Of a DNA stretch of 32,000 nucleotides, positions 12,883 through 30,205 are shown in pieces. The DNA is from Candidatus Baldrarchaeota archaeon. GTDB taxonomy: Archaea > Asgardarchaeota > Baldrarchaeia > Baldrarchaeales > DXJG01. Location: assembly GCA_019056805.1 (NCBI GenBank), contig DXJG01000001.1:30001-62000 (forward strand), in the 5' to 3' direction. Made by a program: the position numbers and the translations under genes. Each line of letters begins with the position of its first letter. Positions within the stretch are counted from its first letter, which is position 1. A model generated the notes under the pieces. It was not told where the DNA came from. It did not search any database and saw only the letters and a program-made list of their open reading frames with translations.

Positions 12883-14315
12883 TTATTTTTTAAGACTACA
12901 GTATTCTCGAATATTAATGTACTCGTAGGCATCGGTTAGACTATCGAAACAGTAGTGAACTTTTTGGAAGGCTTTTCTAAATTCGACAACATCTTTAGCA
13001 ACATCTTTGGGATTCTCTTCATTAAATACGATTCTTTTAATAAATTCTGCTATTTCCTCCATGTCGGATTCTTTCATTCCTAATCTAGTAACTTCACTAA
13101 CTCCTAGACGAATACCTCCAGGTCGTTTATAATCTCTTCCAACTCTTTTGTCCCATGGAAGCAAATTCCGATTAATTATAATGTTGGCTTCCTCTAATTT
13201 TTTCTCAACTGTCATACCGTCCTTCAGCGGTGTTTCACTAATGTCTACGAGAATCGTATGTGATTCCGTAAATCCTTTATGTTCAGCGAGAACCTTAAAC
13301 CCTCTTTCGTACAAGGCTTGGCCTAAGGCTTTAGCGTTTTTAATGATTTGACCGGCATACTCGCTACCAAAAGCAAGCATCTCTGCAAAGGCTACAGCTT
13401 TTGGTAGCAGCAGAATTATCTGCTGCTATTCCCAGCAACTAGGTGCAAATGATGATTGCTCATGGTAGACGGGAAAGCTGCTTTTTTGAGTTCCTCAGCA
13501 TATTTGCTATGCGAGAGGACCGTTCCTCCTTGTGGTCCTGGCAATGTTTTGTGTGTACTTATCGTGAAAACGTCCGCCCCTTCTCTTAAGGGGTCTTGGA
13601 ATTTTCCACCGGCAATAAGTCCTGCAACGTGTGCTCCATCGAAGTGTATATATGCACCGATTTCATCTGCAATTTCTCTAATTTCTTTTACTGGTTCTGG
13701 AAATAGAAATACGCTGGCTCCCATTATGAATAATTTTATATGTTTTCCTTCCTTTGCGAGTTTTTTAACTCGTTTTGCTGTTCCATCTACATCGATGTTC
13801 ATTTCTTTCTCGTCAAAGGCAAAATAGTGTACTTTTAAGCCCCTGACTTTCCCCGCCGTGCCCCAGAGTTTTTTCTTTGCATAGCTTATGTGGCCGCCCG
13901 AGGGAATTGAAATACTCATTATATGATCTCCAGGTTCGGTAAAAGCTGAATATACTATTAAATTTGCAATCACTCCGCTTATGGCGCGGACATCAGCAAA
14001 TTCTGCTTTAAATAATTTTTTAGCTAACTCAATAGCTATTTCTTCTACTTGATCTATATAGATACATCCAGCATAAACGCGTTCGCCGGGCCAACCTTAC
14101 CGGTCCCAGTTTAACTGGGACTTTCGGCGTATCTGTTTCCGAAATCGCTGCATAAACATTCTCGAACTGCTGGACTTGGAATGTTTTTCCGACCCAGCCT
14201 TCTATGCTGGGTTTTCGGAAGCTATTAGTGGAATTGTGCTTCGGAACCACTGATGATGTTCTTTTAATAGTTCAAATATTTTATCGTAGTATTTCTTTGC
14301 TTCTTGTTCTTCCAT
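12883..14315 (-). CDS. glyA: Serine hydroxymethyltransferase; 4 exons (14315-14214, 14185-14123, 14096-13429, 13399-12883), 449 aa after splicing
   Basis: LIASEN, RYAEGWPG, GGHIS, DGAHVAGL, STHKTLPGPQGG, SNHHLH, GIRLG. 1433 nt minus 83 nt of introns = 1350 nt. SD GGAGGG upstream of ATG 14315. Confidence 0.93.
13400..13428 (-). other. Relaxed BHB intron 3 of glyA (29 nt)
   Basis: 9-bp stem AGCAGCAGA/TCTGCTGCT, helix TGGG/ACCA with one G.A mismatch; excision gives GGG AA|A GCT (AGKA). Confidence 0.8.
14097..14122 (-). other. BHB intron 2 of glyA (26 nt)
   Basis: Helix GCCG/CGGU, bulges AAA/AAG, 7-bp stem GTCCCAG/CTGGGAC; excision gives GCC GAA|GGT TGG (YAEGW). Confidence 0.9.
14186..14213 (-). 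other. BHB intron 1 of glyA (28 nt)
   Basis: Helix TCCG/CGGA, bulges AAA/AAA, 7-bp stem ACCCAGC/GCTGGGT; excision gives TCC GAA|AAC ATT (SENI). Confidence 0.9.
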
Positions 14316-14725
14316 TTCTTTCCCTCCTGGTATAATTATGTTAAAATTATTTCTTGAACTTATCAATATGTTTGTTTTAGCGGTAGTTAAATTCTTGGTC
14401 CCGTGGTTTATATAAGCTATCCTTTGCTATTTTTAAAGGGAAACTCATTTGTATATGCCTCTTTCTCTCTACGTATTTGTTCAATTATAAATTTAAGTAA
14501 TGAAGCAATTTGTAGGCCTTTTTGTGGATATTATTAGGTGATTGGTTTTGTGGTTAGGTCGATTTACAAAACTTAAGATGATTCTGGTATAGTTTCTTTC
14601 TCTCTTTATGTTACAATCTTAGTTTATGCGTGTACAAAGAACCCTGCTTGTTGTGTTAAAAGAAAGATTAATATTTTGAATTAATTTAATAATTTTGACA
14701 ATTTAAGTATTTGAGGTGTAATTTA

Positions 14726-14920
14726 ATGTCTCGCAAATCTAAGAAGAGAAAGAAAGAAGGCCCTATGCCTGTAACTGGTGCTGGTTTGATCAGGTTCTTT
14801 CAAGATGAAACTAGAGGTATAAAAGTAGGTCCACTTGCAGTTATTATCCTTTCGTTCTTCTTAGTTATTCTTGTGGGACTAGCTTGGTTAAGGTCTTATG
14901 GATTAATACCGTTTCCATAA
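14726..14920 (+). CDS. sec61b: Preprotein translocase Sec61-beta subunit
   Basis: GAGLIRFFQDE..GIKVGP followed by one TM helix. Confidence 0.9.
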   Translation: MSRKSKKRKKEGPMPVTGAGLIRFFQDETRGIKVGPLAVIILSFFLVILVGLAWLRSYGLIPFP

Positions 14921-15534
14921 GTCTCGTTATTTTCTCGCTTGAATGATTTAACTGGTATTATTATTAAGCCGGTTTTCAATTTTTTTATTTCATCCTCGGT
15001 AAGTTTTTCTTTTAGAACTTTATCTTTCCGTGAATGTACTATTGCACTGTTTCCGAATGGATCTTCAATTATTACTGTGACCCTTTCTTTTCCAATTTTT
15101 ACGTTTTCTATTGTGTTCAGGATTTTGTCACATTTCTTTTGTTTGATCTTTTCTGTTGACCATCTTTTAGCCATTTCGACGACGTTCTTTATTCTTTCTA
15201 GTACGCCTTCGATATTCGTTATGAAGGGAGTGGATGCCGGTCCGGGTTCTACTTTGACTCCTAGTTCAGGAACTCTTATAGTGGCTGTTGAAGACTTAAT
15301 TACCTTTGCGTATAAGTCTTGAGGTGTTTCTACTTTTAGGGAATATCGTGAGGGGCCCCTTTCTGATGTGCAAATTACATCACTATGTTTAAATCCGCAG
15401 GATTTACATTGAAGGGTCAATAATAAGACTTCTCCGAAGTGAGGAACTGTAGTTGTTGTTATCCTTTCTATTAGTGTTTTTCTACTGCAGATCGGGCATT
15501 TAGAAACATTAACTTTAAGTGTATTTTCTGTCAT
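14896..15534 (-). CDS. ZPR1 zinc-finger domain protein
   Basis: CPIC...PHFGEV...CKSCGFKHSDV; TNIEGVL; DPFGNS. Confidence 0.92.
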   Translation of the reverse strand: MTENTLKVNVSKCPICSRKTLIERITTTTVPHFGEVLLLTLQCKSCGFKHSDVICTSERGPSRYSLKVETPQDLYAKVIKSSTATIRVPELGVKVEPGPASTPFITNIEGVLERIKNVVEMAKRWSTEKIKQKKCDKILNTIENVKIGKERVTVIIEDPFGNSAIVHSRKDKVLKEKLTEDEIKKLKTGLIIIPVKSFKRENNETYGNGINP

Positions 15535-15582
15535 TTTACTTTACACCATTTACCTATTACAACTCTAACTTCATTGTGAAGC

Positions 15583-17445
15583 TTGGAGGATACAAGTTTG
15601 AGTAAGGTTGAAGAAATTGTAAAGATTTATGGCAAACTTTTCGCCATACCAAGTATGGGAAGGCTTTTAATTGTTAGCTTAGCTGTGAGTATTTTTGTTG
15701 CTTTTTTACCTAATGTTTCATTTTACTTTAAAACCTCTGAGTTAATAGTACTTTTATTTATTTTGTATGAAGGTATTGCAGTAGTGTGGGGCTCATTAGT
15801 TATTTCAGCGTTCATTAGCTTGCCTATAGTTAAAAGAAAAACTCGTATTCTAAATTTTAGGAGACTTATCGCATTAAATCTTTTTTCTGTAATTCTTTTA
15901 TATGCTGTCTATGGTTTGCCAATTTTAGTAACGATTGGTAATTATCGTGTTGCTATAATTTCTCTTTTAATTGGTGTAGCTATAGCTTTCTCTTTTAGAA
16001 TAATAGCATGTTACTCCATTTCACAGCTATCTTTTATGGAATCTGTTATTGTTTCTCTTATTCAGCCATTGCTTCTCTTGTTTTTAAGAGAAGAGTTGTT
16101 AATTTTCTTTTTCCCTTCTAGTTCTCCGATTCCGATAATTAGACCCTATGTTATTCCTCTATTCATAATTTTGATTATTTTCCTATTCTCAACGATCATG
16201 TATCTTAGAACCGTAAATAATAGTGTAAAATCGTCTCTGGGTATTGGCGGTCTAGAATTTCTTAGAGCCTTTATTGCCGAATGGACCGAACAAGAAGGAA
16301 AAACTATGGAAACACTTTTAACTAAGATTGGTGAGGAAAGAAATTTGCCTGTAGCAATTATTTCTTTTAAAAACTTGAAAAACCAAATAAAAGCTATTTT
16401 ACTGGTTCCAGCAATTCACCCTGGACCATTTAAAACGATTGGTAGTAGCATTTTACCCTACTTCTTGGCTAGAGAACTAAAACAAAGAATGGGCGCAGAA
16501 GTGCTTGTTCTCCATGGGCCATGTGATCACTCCCTTAATTTAACATCAAAGACACAGCTTCAATACGTGTTAGATGAAATTATAAAGAATTTAAGCGATA
16601 TTAACTATGTGGATGGAGCAACTCCATTAGTATGCGTCAAGAAAGAAGATGTAACTGTAAAGACTCAAACTTTTGGTGATCTCGCTTTAATCATTGCAAC
16701 TCGCTCACCTCTACCAATGGACGATGTAACTCTTGGTGTGGGACTTTTAGCCTGTGAGATTGCCGAAAAAGAAGGAATCAAAAAAGCCTTTTTTGTTGAT
16801 GCTCATAACTGTATAGGTGAAACCTTCGAAGATGTATTAATTGGTTCTGAACTTGCTGAAAAAATTATTTCAACAGCTCAAGAAAGTATAAAACAAATGC
16901 TGCGTGTAAATGTGAGTCCATTAAAGATAGGAGTCGCAAAAGGTAGAGATATAGACATTTCGTTAGAGGAAGGATTGGGGAGTGATGGTGTATCTATTTT
17001 ACTTATGGAGATCAAAGACGATAGGTATGCTTACGTTATCTTTGATAGCAATAATTTAGATATTGGTCTTAGAGAAGAAATTATTGATCGTTTAAAGAAG
17101 AATTACAAAATAAGAGAAGTAGAGGTTATGACCACCGATACTCATGAAGTGAATGCCGTATCCCCAAGTAAAGGGGGATATATTCCGCTGGGAAAAGAAA
17201 CAGACCATGAAAAAATAATTTCGTATGTAGTCAATCTAGTAAAGCAGGCAGAGGAAAACCTGGAAGCAGTAAAAATAGGAACAAAGATAATAAAGATACA
17301 AAAACTAAAAGTCATAGGGGAAAATCAGGTATCAGTATTAACATCGGCTGTCTCAACTGGATATACAATAGCGAAGAATAGCGCGCTTGCTGTGTTTATT
17401 CCAACACTTATAGCTTCCATGCTACTCGCCATGTTCTTTATCTAG
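15583..17445 (+). CDS. DUF2070 family membrane protein
   Basis: N-terminal TMs; HPGPF, LHGPCDH, DAHNC, DSNN, TTDTH. Confidence 0.88.
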   Translation: MEDTSLSKVEEIVKIYGKLFAIPSMGRLLIVSLAVSIFVAFLPNVSFYFKTSELIVLLFILYEGIAVVWGSLVISAFISLPIVKRKTRILNFRRLIALNLFSVILLYAVYGLPILVTIGNYRVAIISLLIGVAIAFSFRIIACYSISQLSFMESVIVSLIQPLLLLFLREELLIFFFPSSSPIPIIRPYVIPLFIILIIFLFSTIMYLRTVNNSVKSSLGIGGLEFLRAFIAEWTEQEGKTMETLLTKIGEERNLPVAIISFKNLKNQIKAILLVPAIHPGPFKTIGSSILPYFLARELKQRMGAEVLVLHGPCDHSLNLTSKTQLQYVLDEIIKNLSDINYVDGATPLVCVKKEDVTVKTQTFGDLALIIATRSPLPMDDVTLGVGLLACEIAEKEGIKKAFFVDAHNCIGETFEDVLIGSELAEKIISTAQESIKQMLRVNVSPLKIGVAKGRDIDISLEEGLGSDGVSILLMEIKDDRYAYVIFDSNNLDIGLREEIIDRLKKNYKIREVEVMTTDTHEVNAVSPSKGGYIPLGKETDHEKIISYVVNLVKQAEENLEAVKIGTKIIKIQKLKVIGENQVSVLTSAVSTGYTIAKNSALAVFIPTLIASMLLAMFFI

Positions 17446-18903
17446 GGGCGAGATATTTGAAGTTAATTTATTGTACTTCTTAAGATATAGATAATACTTG
17501 TAAGAAGCATATAAAACGTCAATGGCTCTTTCAGGTGTTGGATAACATGGTATTCCTAATTCTTCAACTTTTTGAACATCTTCCATCACGTATTCGCCTA
17601 AGGGGACACAGAAAACCAACGGTTTAGGTGTTTTTACATCCTCTAATATTTCAGCTACCGCCTTACCTACTTCAATGACTTTAAGAGCTGGCACTATTAA
17701 GGAAATACCATTAACCGTTTCAGTTCTCATCAGCATTCTGGCACTTTCAACATACTGTTCTGTTGTAACTAGAAAGCTTAAATCGAGTGGATTAAAGTTA
17801 CTTGTCCATGGAAAAGCGATTCCTTTAAGTTTTTTTAAGGTCATATTTGGAAGTTTAGCTATCTCTAATCCAAGTAAAACCGCTCTATCCACGGATAAAA
17901 CTCCCATGGATCCGGCATAAGTTACAACGGCGAGACCTTTATCTTTCATTAAGGGTTGTAAAGCAAAAAATCTGACGAAATCAAATAATTGCTCCAAGCT
18001 CTCAGCTCTTATGGCCCCACTTTGTTTGAAAGCAGCATCATAGATTTCCACGTTTCCAGCTAGACTTGCAGTATGAGAAGTGACTGCTCTCTTCCCTTCT
18101 TCGGTTCTTCCGCCTTTTAATATCACAATAGGTTTCTTCAAGGCGGCTTTTTTAAGTGTTCTTAAAAACTTTCTGCCGTTACTCACGCCTTCAAGGTACA
18201 TTCCTATAACTTTAGTATCGGGATCATCTGCAAGATATTCTATTGTATCTGCTTCATCTACATCAACTTTATTTCCGATTGTAACAACTTTGCTAATCCC
18301 CCATCTAGGACCGTATATCTCTAGCATGCCGGCTGCAAAAATGCCAGCTTGCGTTATGAAACTTATACCTCCTTTTTTAAGATTCTTAACTTTTGCGAAG
18401 GTTGTTATAAGATTTCTGTGGGTATTTACTACTCCTGCACAGTTTGGACCAATAATTCTAATGTTGTTTTCTTTAACGATTTCGCGTATTTTTTTCTGAA
18501 GTTCTGCTCCCTCTCCTCCTATTTCAGCAAATCCACCGGCTTCAATAATAACAGCTTTAACATTTTTATTAACGCATTCCATCAAGATCTTAGGAATGAT
18601 TTTTGCTGGAACAATAAGTACGGCAAGGTCAACTTCATCTGGAATGTCTAAAATGGACTTATAACATTTTAATCCTAATATTTCATTTAAATTTGGATTA
18701 ACAGGATAGATTTTCCCTTGAAATCTTCCTTCAACAAGATTAAGTAGGACATTATATCCAAGCTTGCCTGGTGTTGCGGACGCTCCAATTACTGCAACAG
18801 ATTTAGGCTCAAAAAAGTATTTTATGCTTTCATACACCGCTACGCCTTCACGTTTAAATGTTTCAGCCTCATGTCCTATTTCGACGGAAGATATGTCGAC
18901 CAT
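17422..18903 (-). CDS. acdA: ADP-forming acyl-CoA synthetase alpha subunit
   Basis: PKSVAVIGAS, YPVNP, GPNC, SHTASLAG (phospho-His motif). Confidence 0.9.
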   Translation of the reverse strand: MVDISSVEIGHEAETFKREGVAVYESIKYFFEPKSVAVIGASATPGKLGYNVLLNLVEGRFQGKIYPVNPNLNEILGLKCYKSILDIPDEVDLAVLIVPAKIIPKILMECVNKNVKAVIIEAGGFAEIGGEGAELQKKIREIVKENNIRIIGPNCAGVVNTHRNLITTFAKVKNLKKGGISFITQAGIFAAGMLEIYGPRWGISKVVTIGNKVDVDEADTIEYLADDPDTKVIGMYLEGVSNGRKFLRTLKKAALKKPIVILKGGRTEEGKRAVTSHTASLAGNVEIYDAAFKQSGAIRAESLEQLFDFVRFFALQPLMKDKGLAVVTYAGSMGVLSVDRAVLLGLEIAKLPNMTLKKLKGIAFPWTSNFNPLDLSFLVTTEQYVESARMLMRTETVNGISLIVPALKVIEVGKAVAEILEDVKTPKPLVFCVPLGEYVMEDVQKVEELGIPCYPTPERAIDVLYASYKYYLYLKKYNKLTSNISPLDKEHGE

Positions 18904-19331
18904 GAGCTTCCCTCCGAATTTAGCAAGGAGGGAAACAAGAACAAGAAATATAAATTTTTCATAGATAGATATTTACATCTACGTTGGAAAAGATGACATA
19001 AAACTACATAAATTATTAAATCTATCTAACATTTGTAAAAATATTTTTTGTAAAAGAAAATATTTTATTATATTTCCAAAATATAGTGCAAGTTTCAAGA
19101 ACTTAACTCGTAACAAAGTGATTGATAAAAATCGACTAACTTCAAATCTCTGAATAGCCAATATAAGATAAAAATCTAGCAAATATCAATAAAAACATCT
19201 AGAAACAATAGAATAAAGATCCAACGTCGCAACTTCCATTTTTTTTAACCCAATAAATATAAATAAACACGTATAGTACAACATATCAACAAGAACTTAA
19301 ATGAGAAAAAACGTCTAAAGAGGGAAAAAGA

Positions 19332-19942
19332 ATGAAGGAGAAAGGAAAAATAATAGAAATACGAAGTCATGGTCGAGGTGGACAAGGTGTGGTTATTTTT
19401 TCTGAACTCTTGGCAAAAGCTGCATATTTAGATGGCTATATGGCGCAGTCGTTCCCATTTTTCGGCGCAGAAAAGGCAGTTCTTCTCTGAAAGGACTGCC
19501 TCTGCAGAGGCGTGGAGCCCCCTTAATGGCTTTCACACGAATTAGTGATAAAGAGATTTTGTTAAGAAGCCAAGTTTATAATCCTGATATCGTTGTTGTT
19601 TTGGACCCAGTTATCTTAGAGCTAGTAAATGTCACTGATGGATTAAAAGCTGATGGATGGTTGATTGCAAACACTCCAAAGAAACCAGAAGAACTTGGTT
19701 TAAACGGGTCTTTTAAAATCGCAACCGTTGATGCTACCGGCATTGCATTGGAATTAAATCTAAAAGTTGCAGGTTTCGCTGTAGTCAACACACCGATGTT
19801 AGGAGCGTTTTCCAAGGCTACGAAATTAGTGTCACTTGAATCGGTCAAAAGAGTTATTTTAGAGGAATGGAAAGGTGAACTAGCGGAGCTAAATGCCAAA
19901 GCAGCTGAGCTAGCCTTCGAAAAAACTATTGTAAAAGTTTAG
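19332..19942 (+). CDS. porG: 2-oxoacid (pyruvate-type):ferredoxin oxidoreductase gamma subunit; 2 exons (19332-19472, 19508-19942), 191 aa spliced
   Basis: HGRGGQG, FGAE|RRGAP, NTPMLGA. 611 nt minus 35 nt = 576 nt. Confidence 0.92.
19473..19507 (+). other. Canonical BHB intron of porG (35 nt)
   Basis: Helix GCAG/CTGC, bulges AAA/AGA, 11-bp stem; excision gives GCA GAA|AGG CGT (AERR). Confidence 0.92.
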
Positions 19943-29971: not shown

Positions 29972-30205
29972 TTAAGAAACTACTTCATAGTATACTTTTG
30001 GCCTGCCTCTGCCGTCACCCTTCACTGGAACTTTTCGGACCTTGCCCTTTAGAACTAGTTTGATAAGCTTGTCGTAGAGAGTCGTTCGGGGCACTCCAGT
30101 TATTTTCATTAACTCAGTTCTCGTAAGGGGCCCCTTCTCTTTGAGTATTTGAATTAATTCTTCTTCCTGAATTCCCTTTTTAATATTGGTTGTGTCTTTG
30201 GTCAT
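29972..30205 (-). CDS. Small winged-helix DNA-binding protein (TrmB/ArsR-like)
   Basis: LTRTELMKITGVPRTTLYDKLIKL...GRGRPKVYY. Confidence 0.85.
   Translation of the reverse strand: MTKDTTNIKKGIQEEELIQILKEKGPLTRTELMKITGVPRTTLYDKLIKLVLKGKVRKVPVKGDGRGRPKVYYEVVS

Follow-up and report, generated by a model that had tools for sequence, protein, structure and literature searches.

The first bulge-helix-bulge (BHB) intron shown in an archaeal mRNA was that of the cbf5 pre-mRNA of Crenarchaeota (Watanabe 2002; Yokobori 2009, PMC2738675). Variants of the cbf5 intron with lengths of 33–39 nt leave the reading frame unchanged, and one of them was overlooked by annotation; in-frame stop codons were not analysed in these papers (PMC2738675). 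In ciliates, the tiny spliceosomal introns show an enrichment of stops in the reading frame, most strongly at lengths that are multiples of three, and this enrichment has been tied to nonsense-mediated decay (NMD) (PMC5014332); stop-rich tiny introns of Paramecium are credited in the same paper to its reference 20. Here we describe four putative introns of the BHB type in two protein-coding genes, glyA and a porG-type gene, located in a 32,000-nt stretch of the genome of a Baldrarchaeia-type Asgard archaeon (genome G000; 1.92 Mb, 35% G+C). This stretch, hereafter the window, corresponds to positions 30001–62000 of contig C6 (G000:C6:30001-62000), and the coordinates of the two genes are counted from its first letter. 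In the G000 lineage and in some of its relatives, most mRNA BHB introns carry at least one stop codon in frame with the upstream exon, mostly within about three codons of the 5′ splice site. BHB introns are a known kind of intron and the in-frame stop bias is the new part; no description of such a bias in archaeal introns was found in the literature.

The glyA gene, encoding serine hydroxymethyltransferase (SHMT), is located on the minus strand and consists of four open pieces with three inserts between them. Exon 1 (14214..14315, 34 codons, with the ATG at 14315), from which tblastn chains lead to 80 archaeal glyA loci, is followed by intron 1 (14213-14186, 28 nt), exon 2 (14123..14185, 21 codons, NIPSPAVRECLCSDFGNRYAE), of which no other frame aligns to SHMT homologues, intron 2 (14122-14097, 26 nt), exon 3 (13430..14096, 222 codons plus 1 nt, matching positions 51-283 of the Pfam SHMT profile with E 7.8e-41), intron 3 (13429-13401, 29 nt), and exon 4 (12883..13400, profile positions 299-399), which ends at the stop codon. 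Removal of the inserts yields a complete SHMT of 449 aa, the exons of which are collinear on the Pfam profile. The porG-type gene, encoding the gamma subunit of pyruvate/2-oxoacid:ferredoxin oxidoreductase (POR-gamma), is located on the plus strand and comprises two open pieces, exon 1 (19332..19472, 47 codons) and exon 2 (19508..19942), separated by a single insert (19473-19507, 35 nt). Once this insert is removed, the positions of the Pfam POR profile run unbroken over the junction, with 1-32 in exon 1 directly contiguous with 33-173 in exon 2. None of the four intron lengths (28, 26, 29, and 35 nt) is divisible by three.

Each of the inserts is a short GC-rich hairpin of 26–35 nt with a BHB shape. 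In the canonical register, the four exon bases immediately preceding a 3-nt bulge are paired with the four intron bases immediately preceding the second 3-nt bulge, and the cut is made after the second base of each bulge. An exact arrangement of this kind, with a 4-bp helix, two opposite 3-nt bulges, and cuts matching the exon junction, was found for glyA intron 1 (UCCG aa/a ACCCAGC auagaag GCUGGGU CGGA aa/a, where the slash marks the cut; z −4.0), glyA intron 2 (GCCG aa/a GUCCCAGU uaa ACUGGGAC CGGU aa/g), and the porG intron (GCAG aa/a AGGCAGUUCUU cucuga AAGGACUGCCU CUGC ag/a). The motif of glyA intron 3 is relaxed: it has a 3-bp central helix (UGG paired with CCA), a GAA bulge, a 10-bp stem, and a UAAU loop, and the 3′ cut falls within a 2 × 2 internal loop.

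The two genes are usually continuous elsewhere, since glyA is without interruption in 76 of the 80 loci of other archaea, and 69 of 80 metagenomic porG loci are continuous at the junction, the others comprising five with the intron, five that differ only by a one-codon indel in another part of the gene, and one that was unresolved. DNA contigs from independent metagenomes cover the window introns with zero differences, and the introns are thus not assembly errors. The genome contains two genes of the tRNA_int_endo family (PF01974), at C9:197884-198129 and C9:13779-14039, with open frames of 189 and 203 aa, and one RtcB gene (PF01139, E 4e-183). The PF01974 pair suggests a two-subunit splicing endonuclease; the BHB introns would be cut by this tRNA splicing enzyme, and the exons would then presumably be rejoined by RtcB. 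The presence of two separate genes is also consistent with an endonuclease of broad specificity, and such an enzyme would be well matched to the relaxed motif of glyA intron 3. We infer from sequence and structure that the glyA and porG inserts are endonuclease-type (BHB) mRNA introns, which would be spliced from the transcripts.

On the minus strand, the three glyA exons read into the introns as GAA AAC CCA GCA TAG, GCC GAA AGT CCC AGT TAA, and GGG AAT AGC AGC AGA TAA, and the first porG exon reads on the plus strand as GAA AAG GCA GTT CTT CTC TGA. The resulting stops, TAG at 14204-14202, TAA at 14113-14111, TAA at 13418-13416, and TGA at 19488-19490, were confirmed in the readings of both strands. 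A sequence-only reading of the window had placed all of them in terminal loops of 4–7 nt. RNAfold indeed predicts each stop in the terminal loop, namely AUAGAAG (glyA-1), UAA (glyA-2, where the stop is the entire loop), UAAU (glyA-3), and CUCUGA (porG), although the loop sizes are really 3–7 nt. The accompanying claim that every intron has an in-frame stop in its loop holds for the window but not for the genome: among the 12 mRNA introns catalogued in G000, two, both in the fbp gene (fbp-1 and fbp-2), have no such stop, and only 5–6 have it in the loop, so that neither "every intron" nor "in the loop" is a rule beyond the window. The chance of an in-frame loop stop, estimated by loop shuffling, was 0.28, 0.32, 0.17, and 0.07 for the individual introns; the product of about 1e-3 is post hoc, because the same four introns prompted the idea.

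A catalogue of mRNA introns was built with two homology-anchored screens, which were used instead of a genome-wide scan for structure and open reading frames, as the latter was swamped by gene junctions and chance hairpins. The first screen combined tblastn with the chaining of ungapped high-scoring segment pairs (HSPs) against the complete 1.42-Mb genome of an Odin-like relative (G005) and collected exon pairs with 10–220 nt of excess sequence between them. The second was a structure-first search for canonical BHB hairpins, in which the spliced peptide had to align gaplessly over the junction to a homologue. An open frame was demanded only outside the intron, and stops inside introns are therefore irrelevant to detection. 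A span test with four residues on one side is prone to false positives in GC-rich loci, so at least 20 BLOSUM62 units were demanded on each flank for the high-confidence set. This set of 19 introns consists of 12 from G000 (ten that pass the cut-off, and glyA-3 and fbp-2, included on homology alone), four from G005, and three from other loci (L149, L095, and L231). The screen asked for stronger structure at multiple-of-3 lengths, and the overall frequency of that length class is not inferable from it.

The frame test relies on the sequence of each intron itself: if k of the three frames contain a stop, the chance for the exon frame is k/3. An in-frame stop is present in 17 of the 19 high-confidence introns, versus 10.0 expected upon such frame randomisation (P=3.4e-4), and the other two frames contain stops in 4 and 9 introns. 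With the four prompting introns held out, the count is 13 of 15 versus 8.0 expected (P=0.004), and for G000 alone it is 10 of 12 versus 6.7 (P=0.03), with 3 and 7 in the other frames. In verified mRNA BHB introns, stops are about twice as frequent in frame as out of frame. The density of stops per codon is 10.1% in frame 0 versus 3.7% and 6.4% in the other frames; the tRNA introns of G000 (n=12), which the sequence-only reading had named for comparison, have 5.2% per triplet position. The first in-frame stop is located at a median of 3 codons past the 5′ splice site, and 15 of the 16 high-confidence introns of non-multiple-of-3 length contain one. No frame bias was detected in a negative control consisting of low-confidence, mostly spurious pipeline candidates, with stops in the three frames in 8/8/6 of 25 candidates for G005 and 8/6/3 of 18 for G000. 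If only loops are counted, 9 of all 19 introns have an in-frame loop stop versus 3.9 under loop shuffling (P=0.001), and 3 and 2 introns have loop stops in the other frames. Outside the window introns, the stops are part of stems (CTAG motifs), of the 5′ junction, or of the 3′ bulge.

Beyond the window, the G000 introns of the catalogue include those of pyrG (C9:155043, 32 nt), aIF5B (C10:39162, 33 nt), and pcm (C17:48224, 31 nt), all with an in-frame TAG in a CTAG stem, accompanied in pyrG by TA/A at the 5′ junction. The atpD intron (C6:168430, 36 nt) has an in-frame TAA in the 3′ stem arm, and the rpoN intron (C10 plus strand, 32508, 41 nt) has two loop stops. A further intron, of 22 nt, is located on the minus strand of C17 (179797). 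The two introns without an in-frame stop are fbp-1 (C17:208555-208584, 30 nt), located inside the catalytic-lysine codon, and fbp-2 (49 nt). The four G005 introns (plus 630085, minus 565455, plus 827297, and plus 845089) are homology-supported BHB structures in protein genes; they are frame-changing, and all four contain an in-frame stop. In Bathyarchaeia, a glyA intron occupies the same site as glyA-2 (L149:1168-1199) and another is located six codons downstream of this site (L095:832-863), both with an in-frame TAA in the loop, and an intron in a porG homologue (L231:10290-10317) interrupts the gene at a site different from that of the window intron. The occurrence of BHB introns in the same genes of other archaeal lineages suggests that introns were gained repeatedly, or that they are ancient and occupy preferred sites.

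Orthologues were collected from same-genus genomes (including G001 and G003), a same-order genome (G004), and metagenomic loci. All recovered orthologues of the four window introns retain an in-frame stop, despite codon switches and relocation. For porG, seven distinct introns (six beyond that of the window) all have the stop at intron offset 12 or 15, i.e., at the same codon or the one before; it is TGA in two, TAA followed by TAG in one, and TAG in four of them, and zero stops are present in the other frames. The codon after the porG stop is variable (AAA, GAG, TAG, AAG, or CAA), and the stems show compensatory changes. Four distinct orthologous sequences of glyA-1 have the stop at the same codon, with TAG changed to TAA. 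The glyA-3 orthologues keep TAA at the same codon with altered flanking loop bases (GAUAAUU to GCUAAGG or GCUAAAG). In glyA-2 orthologues, the loop TAA is gone, and the stop is a TGA one codon earlier (offset 6) and/or, in 27-nt variants, a 3′-bulge TAA in frame. A similar relocation is seen in rpoN, where three relatives have TGA at offset 2; in G000 this codon is TGG, replaced by the two loop stops. The aIF5B intron of G004 is 30 nt long, differs in sequence, and contains two in-frame stops. The out-of-frame loop TAA of atpD is not conserved. In the pool of distinct non-reference orthologues, which are not independent sequences, in-frame stops are present in 30 of 32 versus 12 and 10 in the other frames.

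Close relatives also differ in intron length by 1–2 nt, as in the porG variants of L173 and L175 (33 nt) and the glyA-2 variants of L073, L173, and L174 (27 nt). These length variants alternate between frame-shifting and multiple-of-3 forms, and every multiple-of-3 variant has an in-frame stop. The fbp-1 intron and the 22-nt intron are absent from G001, G003, and G004, in which the genes are continuous at both sites; they appear to have been gained recently in this species, or else lost from the relatives, and the absence of fbp-1 from all three relatives would make it a young intron.

The pcm intron interrupts the same codon across many Asgard families, with 17 distinct introns among 30 loci phylum-wide, and the 30-nt variants have an in-frame stop in 3 of 3 cases. 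When all scored sequences are divided by length, 16 of 17 at multiple-of-3 lengths contain an in-frame stop, fbp-1 being the exception, as do roughly 36 of 47 at other lengths.

These data agree better with weak, lineage-dependent selection favouring an early exon-frame stop than with pure chance. That it is weak purifying selection for an in-frame fail-safe, which would end translation of unspliced mRNA, we consider an even bet: the stops present in most of the introns suggest such a fail-safe but do not prove it, and the sample is small and partly non-independent, with one threshold set post hoc. Selection for termination on unspliced mRNA, as proposed in the sequence-only reading, draws support from the frame bias and from the retention of stops in orthologues, but several observations weigh against it. 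The high-confidence cut-off was chosen after the data had been seen, and orthologues are non-independent samples. In G000 without the prompting four, an in-frame stop is present in 6 of 8 introns versus 4.7 expected, which is not significant (P=0.25), and a loop stop in 1 of 8. For loops only, the hold-out gives 5 of 15 versus 3.0–3.3 expected (P 0.1–0.2; 3.0 and P=0.11 under loop shuffling), with no significant enrichment; thus, the comparison with out-of-frame stops and shuffled loops bears out an excess of in-frame stops anywhere in the intron, but the location in the loop fails in the hold-out. Nor is the stop universal, since it is missing from fbp-2 and its two orthologues and from fbp-1, the length of which is a multiple of three. 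The pcm panel has an in-frame stop in 9 of 17 introns versus 6.3 expected (P ~0.055), each of the other frames having one in 5, and one pcm family, represented by six genomes, lacks stops in all three frames; with only 9 of 17 containing it, the in-frame stop is dispensable. In introns of non-multiple-of-3 length, a ribosome reading through would in any case run into an out-of-frame stop before a few tens of codons had passed, and the benefit would be small. Finally, stops in stems may be kept by base pairing instead of selection for termination.

The same observations can be read as the outcome of chance, composition, and shared ancestry in a small non-independent sample examined with post-hoc thresholds. 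The unpaired parts of the introns are A/T-rich and the introns are interrelated (CTAG/TAGCAGC stems), so that stops are common in all frames; frame 2 contains them in 9 of the 19 introns, and the stem stops of G000 show no frame bias (7/4/7 introns in a 15-intron working list that includes three later assigned to low confidence). The non-significant G000 hold-out, the failure of the loop-specific hold-out, the post-hoc threshold, and the pcm panel all agree with this explanation. However, the frame randomisation is conditioned on the introns' own sequences, and its hold-out still gives P=0.004; the independent genome G005 has 4 of 4, and the spurious candidates are unbiased. Moreover, the switching of the porG stop between TGA, TAA, and TAG, which required at least two substitutions, none of them to sense, and the relocation of stops in glyA-2 and rpoN are unexpected under neutrality. 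We consider it rather doubtful that chance, composition, and ancestry explain the pattern.

Archaeal ribosomes can load on nascent RNA before it is spliced, and if the stops are indeed a fail-safe, an early in-frame stop would halt its translation immediately. The halt would prevent the synthesis of proteins bearing the insert (multiple-of-3 introns) or frameshifted tails and would keep ribosomes off exon 2 and the 3′ half of the BHB. The loop would be the part of the hairpin with sequence freedom for a stop, and a loop stop would be unnecessary where a stem or bulge supplies one, as in CTAG stems, TA/A junctions, and the UAA 3′ bulge. The fitness benefit could consist in ribosome release and less junk peptide. 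Two selective readings fit the data nearly alike, namely the limitation of aberrant protein, which would concern chiefly multiple-of-3 introns, and the freeing of the BHB from ribosomes to allow its folding; that the stop comes early and is present in frame-shifting introns makes us lean slightly to the latter.

In its strong form, the latter idea would mean that the stop has been selected mainly to aid splicing: with ribosomes halted in the 5′ half, neither the 3′ arm and 3′ bulge nor the exon-2 strand would be melted again and again, and the endonuclease could recognise the BHB on a message under translation. The excess of stops in non-multiple-of-3 introns (15 of 16), where avoidance of junk protein gains little, their early position at a median of 3 codons past the 5′ splice site, and the dependence of BHB pairing on exon bases from both sides all point in this direction. 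A terminating ribosome, however, has a footprint that extends roughly 12 nt downstream of its stop codon and would itself melt most of a hairpin of 26–35 nt, and fbp-2 and one pcm lineage do without the stop. A role mainly in splicing is, in our view, unlikely.

Stop triplets might also be favoured in loops for structural or enzymatic reasons, for instance if UAA/GAAA-type loops are stable or if the endonuclease or ligase recognises them, with the frame being irrelevant. Loops of the UAA, UAAU, and UAAAACU types do recur in G000 introns, but loop stops prefer frame 0 (9 versus 3 and 2), the tRNA introns of the same genome remain at the background stop density of 5.2%, and loop bases other than the stop turn over freely among orthologues, all of which makes this explanation very improbable. 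That the inserts stay in the mRNA, with ribosomes skipping them by translational bypassing (known from T4 gene 60), or that they mark pseudogenes, is hardly credible in spite of short repeats beside some inserts (AAAAC at glyA intron 1) and a stop near the would-be take-off site, since the porG take-off and landing codons are mismatched (GAA versus CAG), which led us to reject bypassing, all four inserts match the BHB cleavage register in full or almost so and are conserved in relatives with compensatory stem changes, and an essential single-copy gene with three breaks, each exactly frame-restoring, argues against decay.

Many intron stems of G000 contain the CTAG palindrome or the sequence (C)TAGCAGC, namely those of pyrG, aIF5B, pcm, fbp-1, atpD, and glyA-3; examples are the stems of fbp-1 (CTAGCAGCTA) and glyA-3 (TAGCAGCAGA). 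This similarity hints that several mRNA introns of the genome could be related copies of one hairpin family. Three more probable introns were left outside the high-confidence set owing to weak homology on short first exons, a 17-nt one at C9:297318/297320, probably in kae1, and two on the minus strand of C11 (183930/183932 and 185315/185317); all contain a stop in the exon frame, which in two of them is located at the 5′ splice junction (/TAG and /TAA). Several candidates were rejected. The HSP pairs at C17:88107 and C17:137496 represent neighbouring genes, and that at C17:239452 spans a masked run of N, while two stopless 24-nt in-frame hairpins in P-type ATPase genes (C3 and C2) are coding, as follows from gapless alignment to the structures of CopA and ZntA. 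The screen of a 236-kb part of G004 yielded no convincing mRNA intron. Concerning tRNA genes, ARAGORN reported only 18 in G000, 12 of them with introns, including one of 768 nt; the tRNA genes of this genome are probably heavily interrupted and under-detected.

Genes split in this way are mishandled by gene callers, which return glyA as four fragments and read through the first intron of fbp. If the bias reflects selection, a stop in frame 0 would offer a simple signature separating true mRNA introns from coding hairpins, and the predictions could be tested by reporter assays in cultivable archaea. It would also be the first sign of archaeal cells managing the conflict between co-transcriptional translation and mRNA splicing. 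This conflict is often cited as a reason why eukaryotes separated the two processes with a nucleus, and Asgard archaea are their closest archaeal relatives.

Among described systems, the cbf5 intron is the closest in kind. Like the introns described here, it is a short BHB or relaxed-BHB intron (16–44 nt) in an archaeal coding sequence, too short to encode anything, and it is excised by the tRNA splicing endonuclease and a ligase, a route which in the present case we infer from sequence. Unlike the single intron position of cbf5, found in another phylum, several genes are split here, and glyA is split three times. A more distant parallel is provided by the HAC1 and XBP1 mRNAs, in which IRE1 cuts stem-loops within the coding mRNA, RtcB or Trl1 ligates the products, and translation of the unspliced form is curtailed and gives a different product. 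The likeness, drawn from general knowledge, lies in a protein endonuclease that acts on mRNA stem-loops together with a tRNA-type ligase; the differences lie in the endonuclease, the motifs, and the nature of the event, a regulated stress switch versus a constitutive intron. In HAC1, moreover, translation is blocked by base pairing with the 5′ untranslated region and not by an in-frame loop stop.

The tiny introns of ciliates differ from those of G000 and its relatives in being spliceosomal, in their link to degradation by NMD, and in their number, with thousands of introns there versus tens of protein-cut BHB hairpins here; to our knowledge, NMD is not known in archaea, although no search aimed at its factors was made. 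It can be proposed tentatively, at less than even confidence, that translation-linked selection favours an in-frame stop in the mRNA introns of Asgard archaea and related lineages and that these introns would represent an NMD-free prokaryotic counterpart of the tiny-intron safeguard, possibly one that uncouples ribosomes from the splice substrate. What the two systems have in common is the bias towards in-frame stops, which in the archaeal introns of multiple-of-3 length extends to 16 of 17 sequences.

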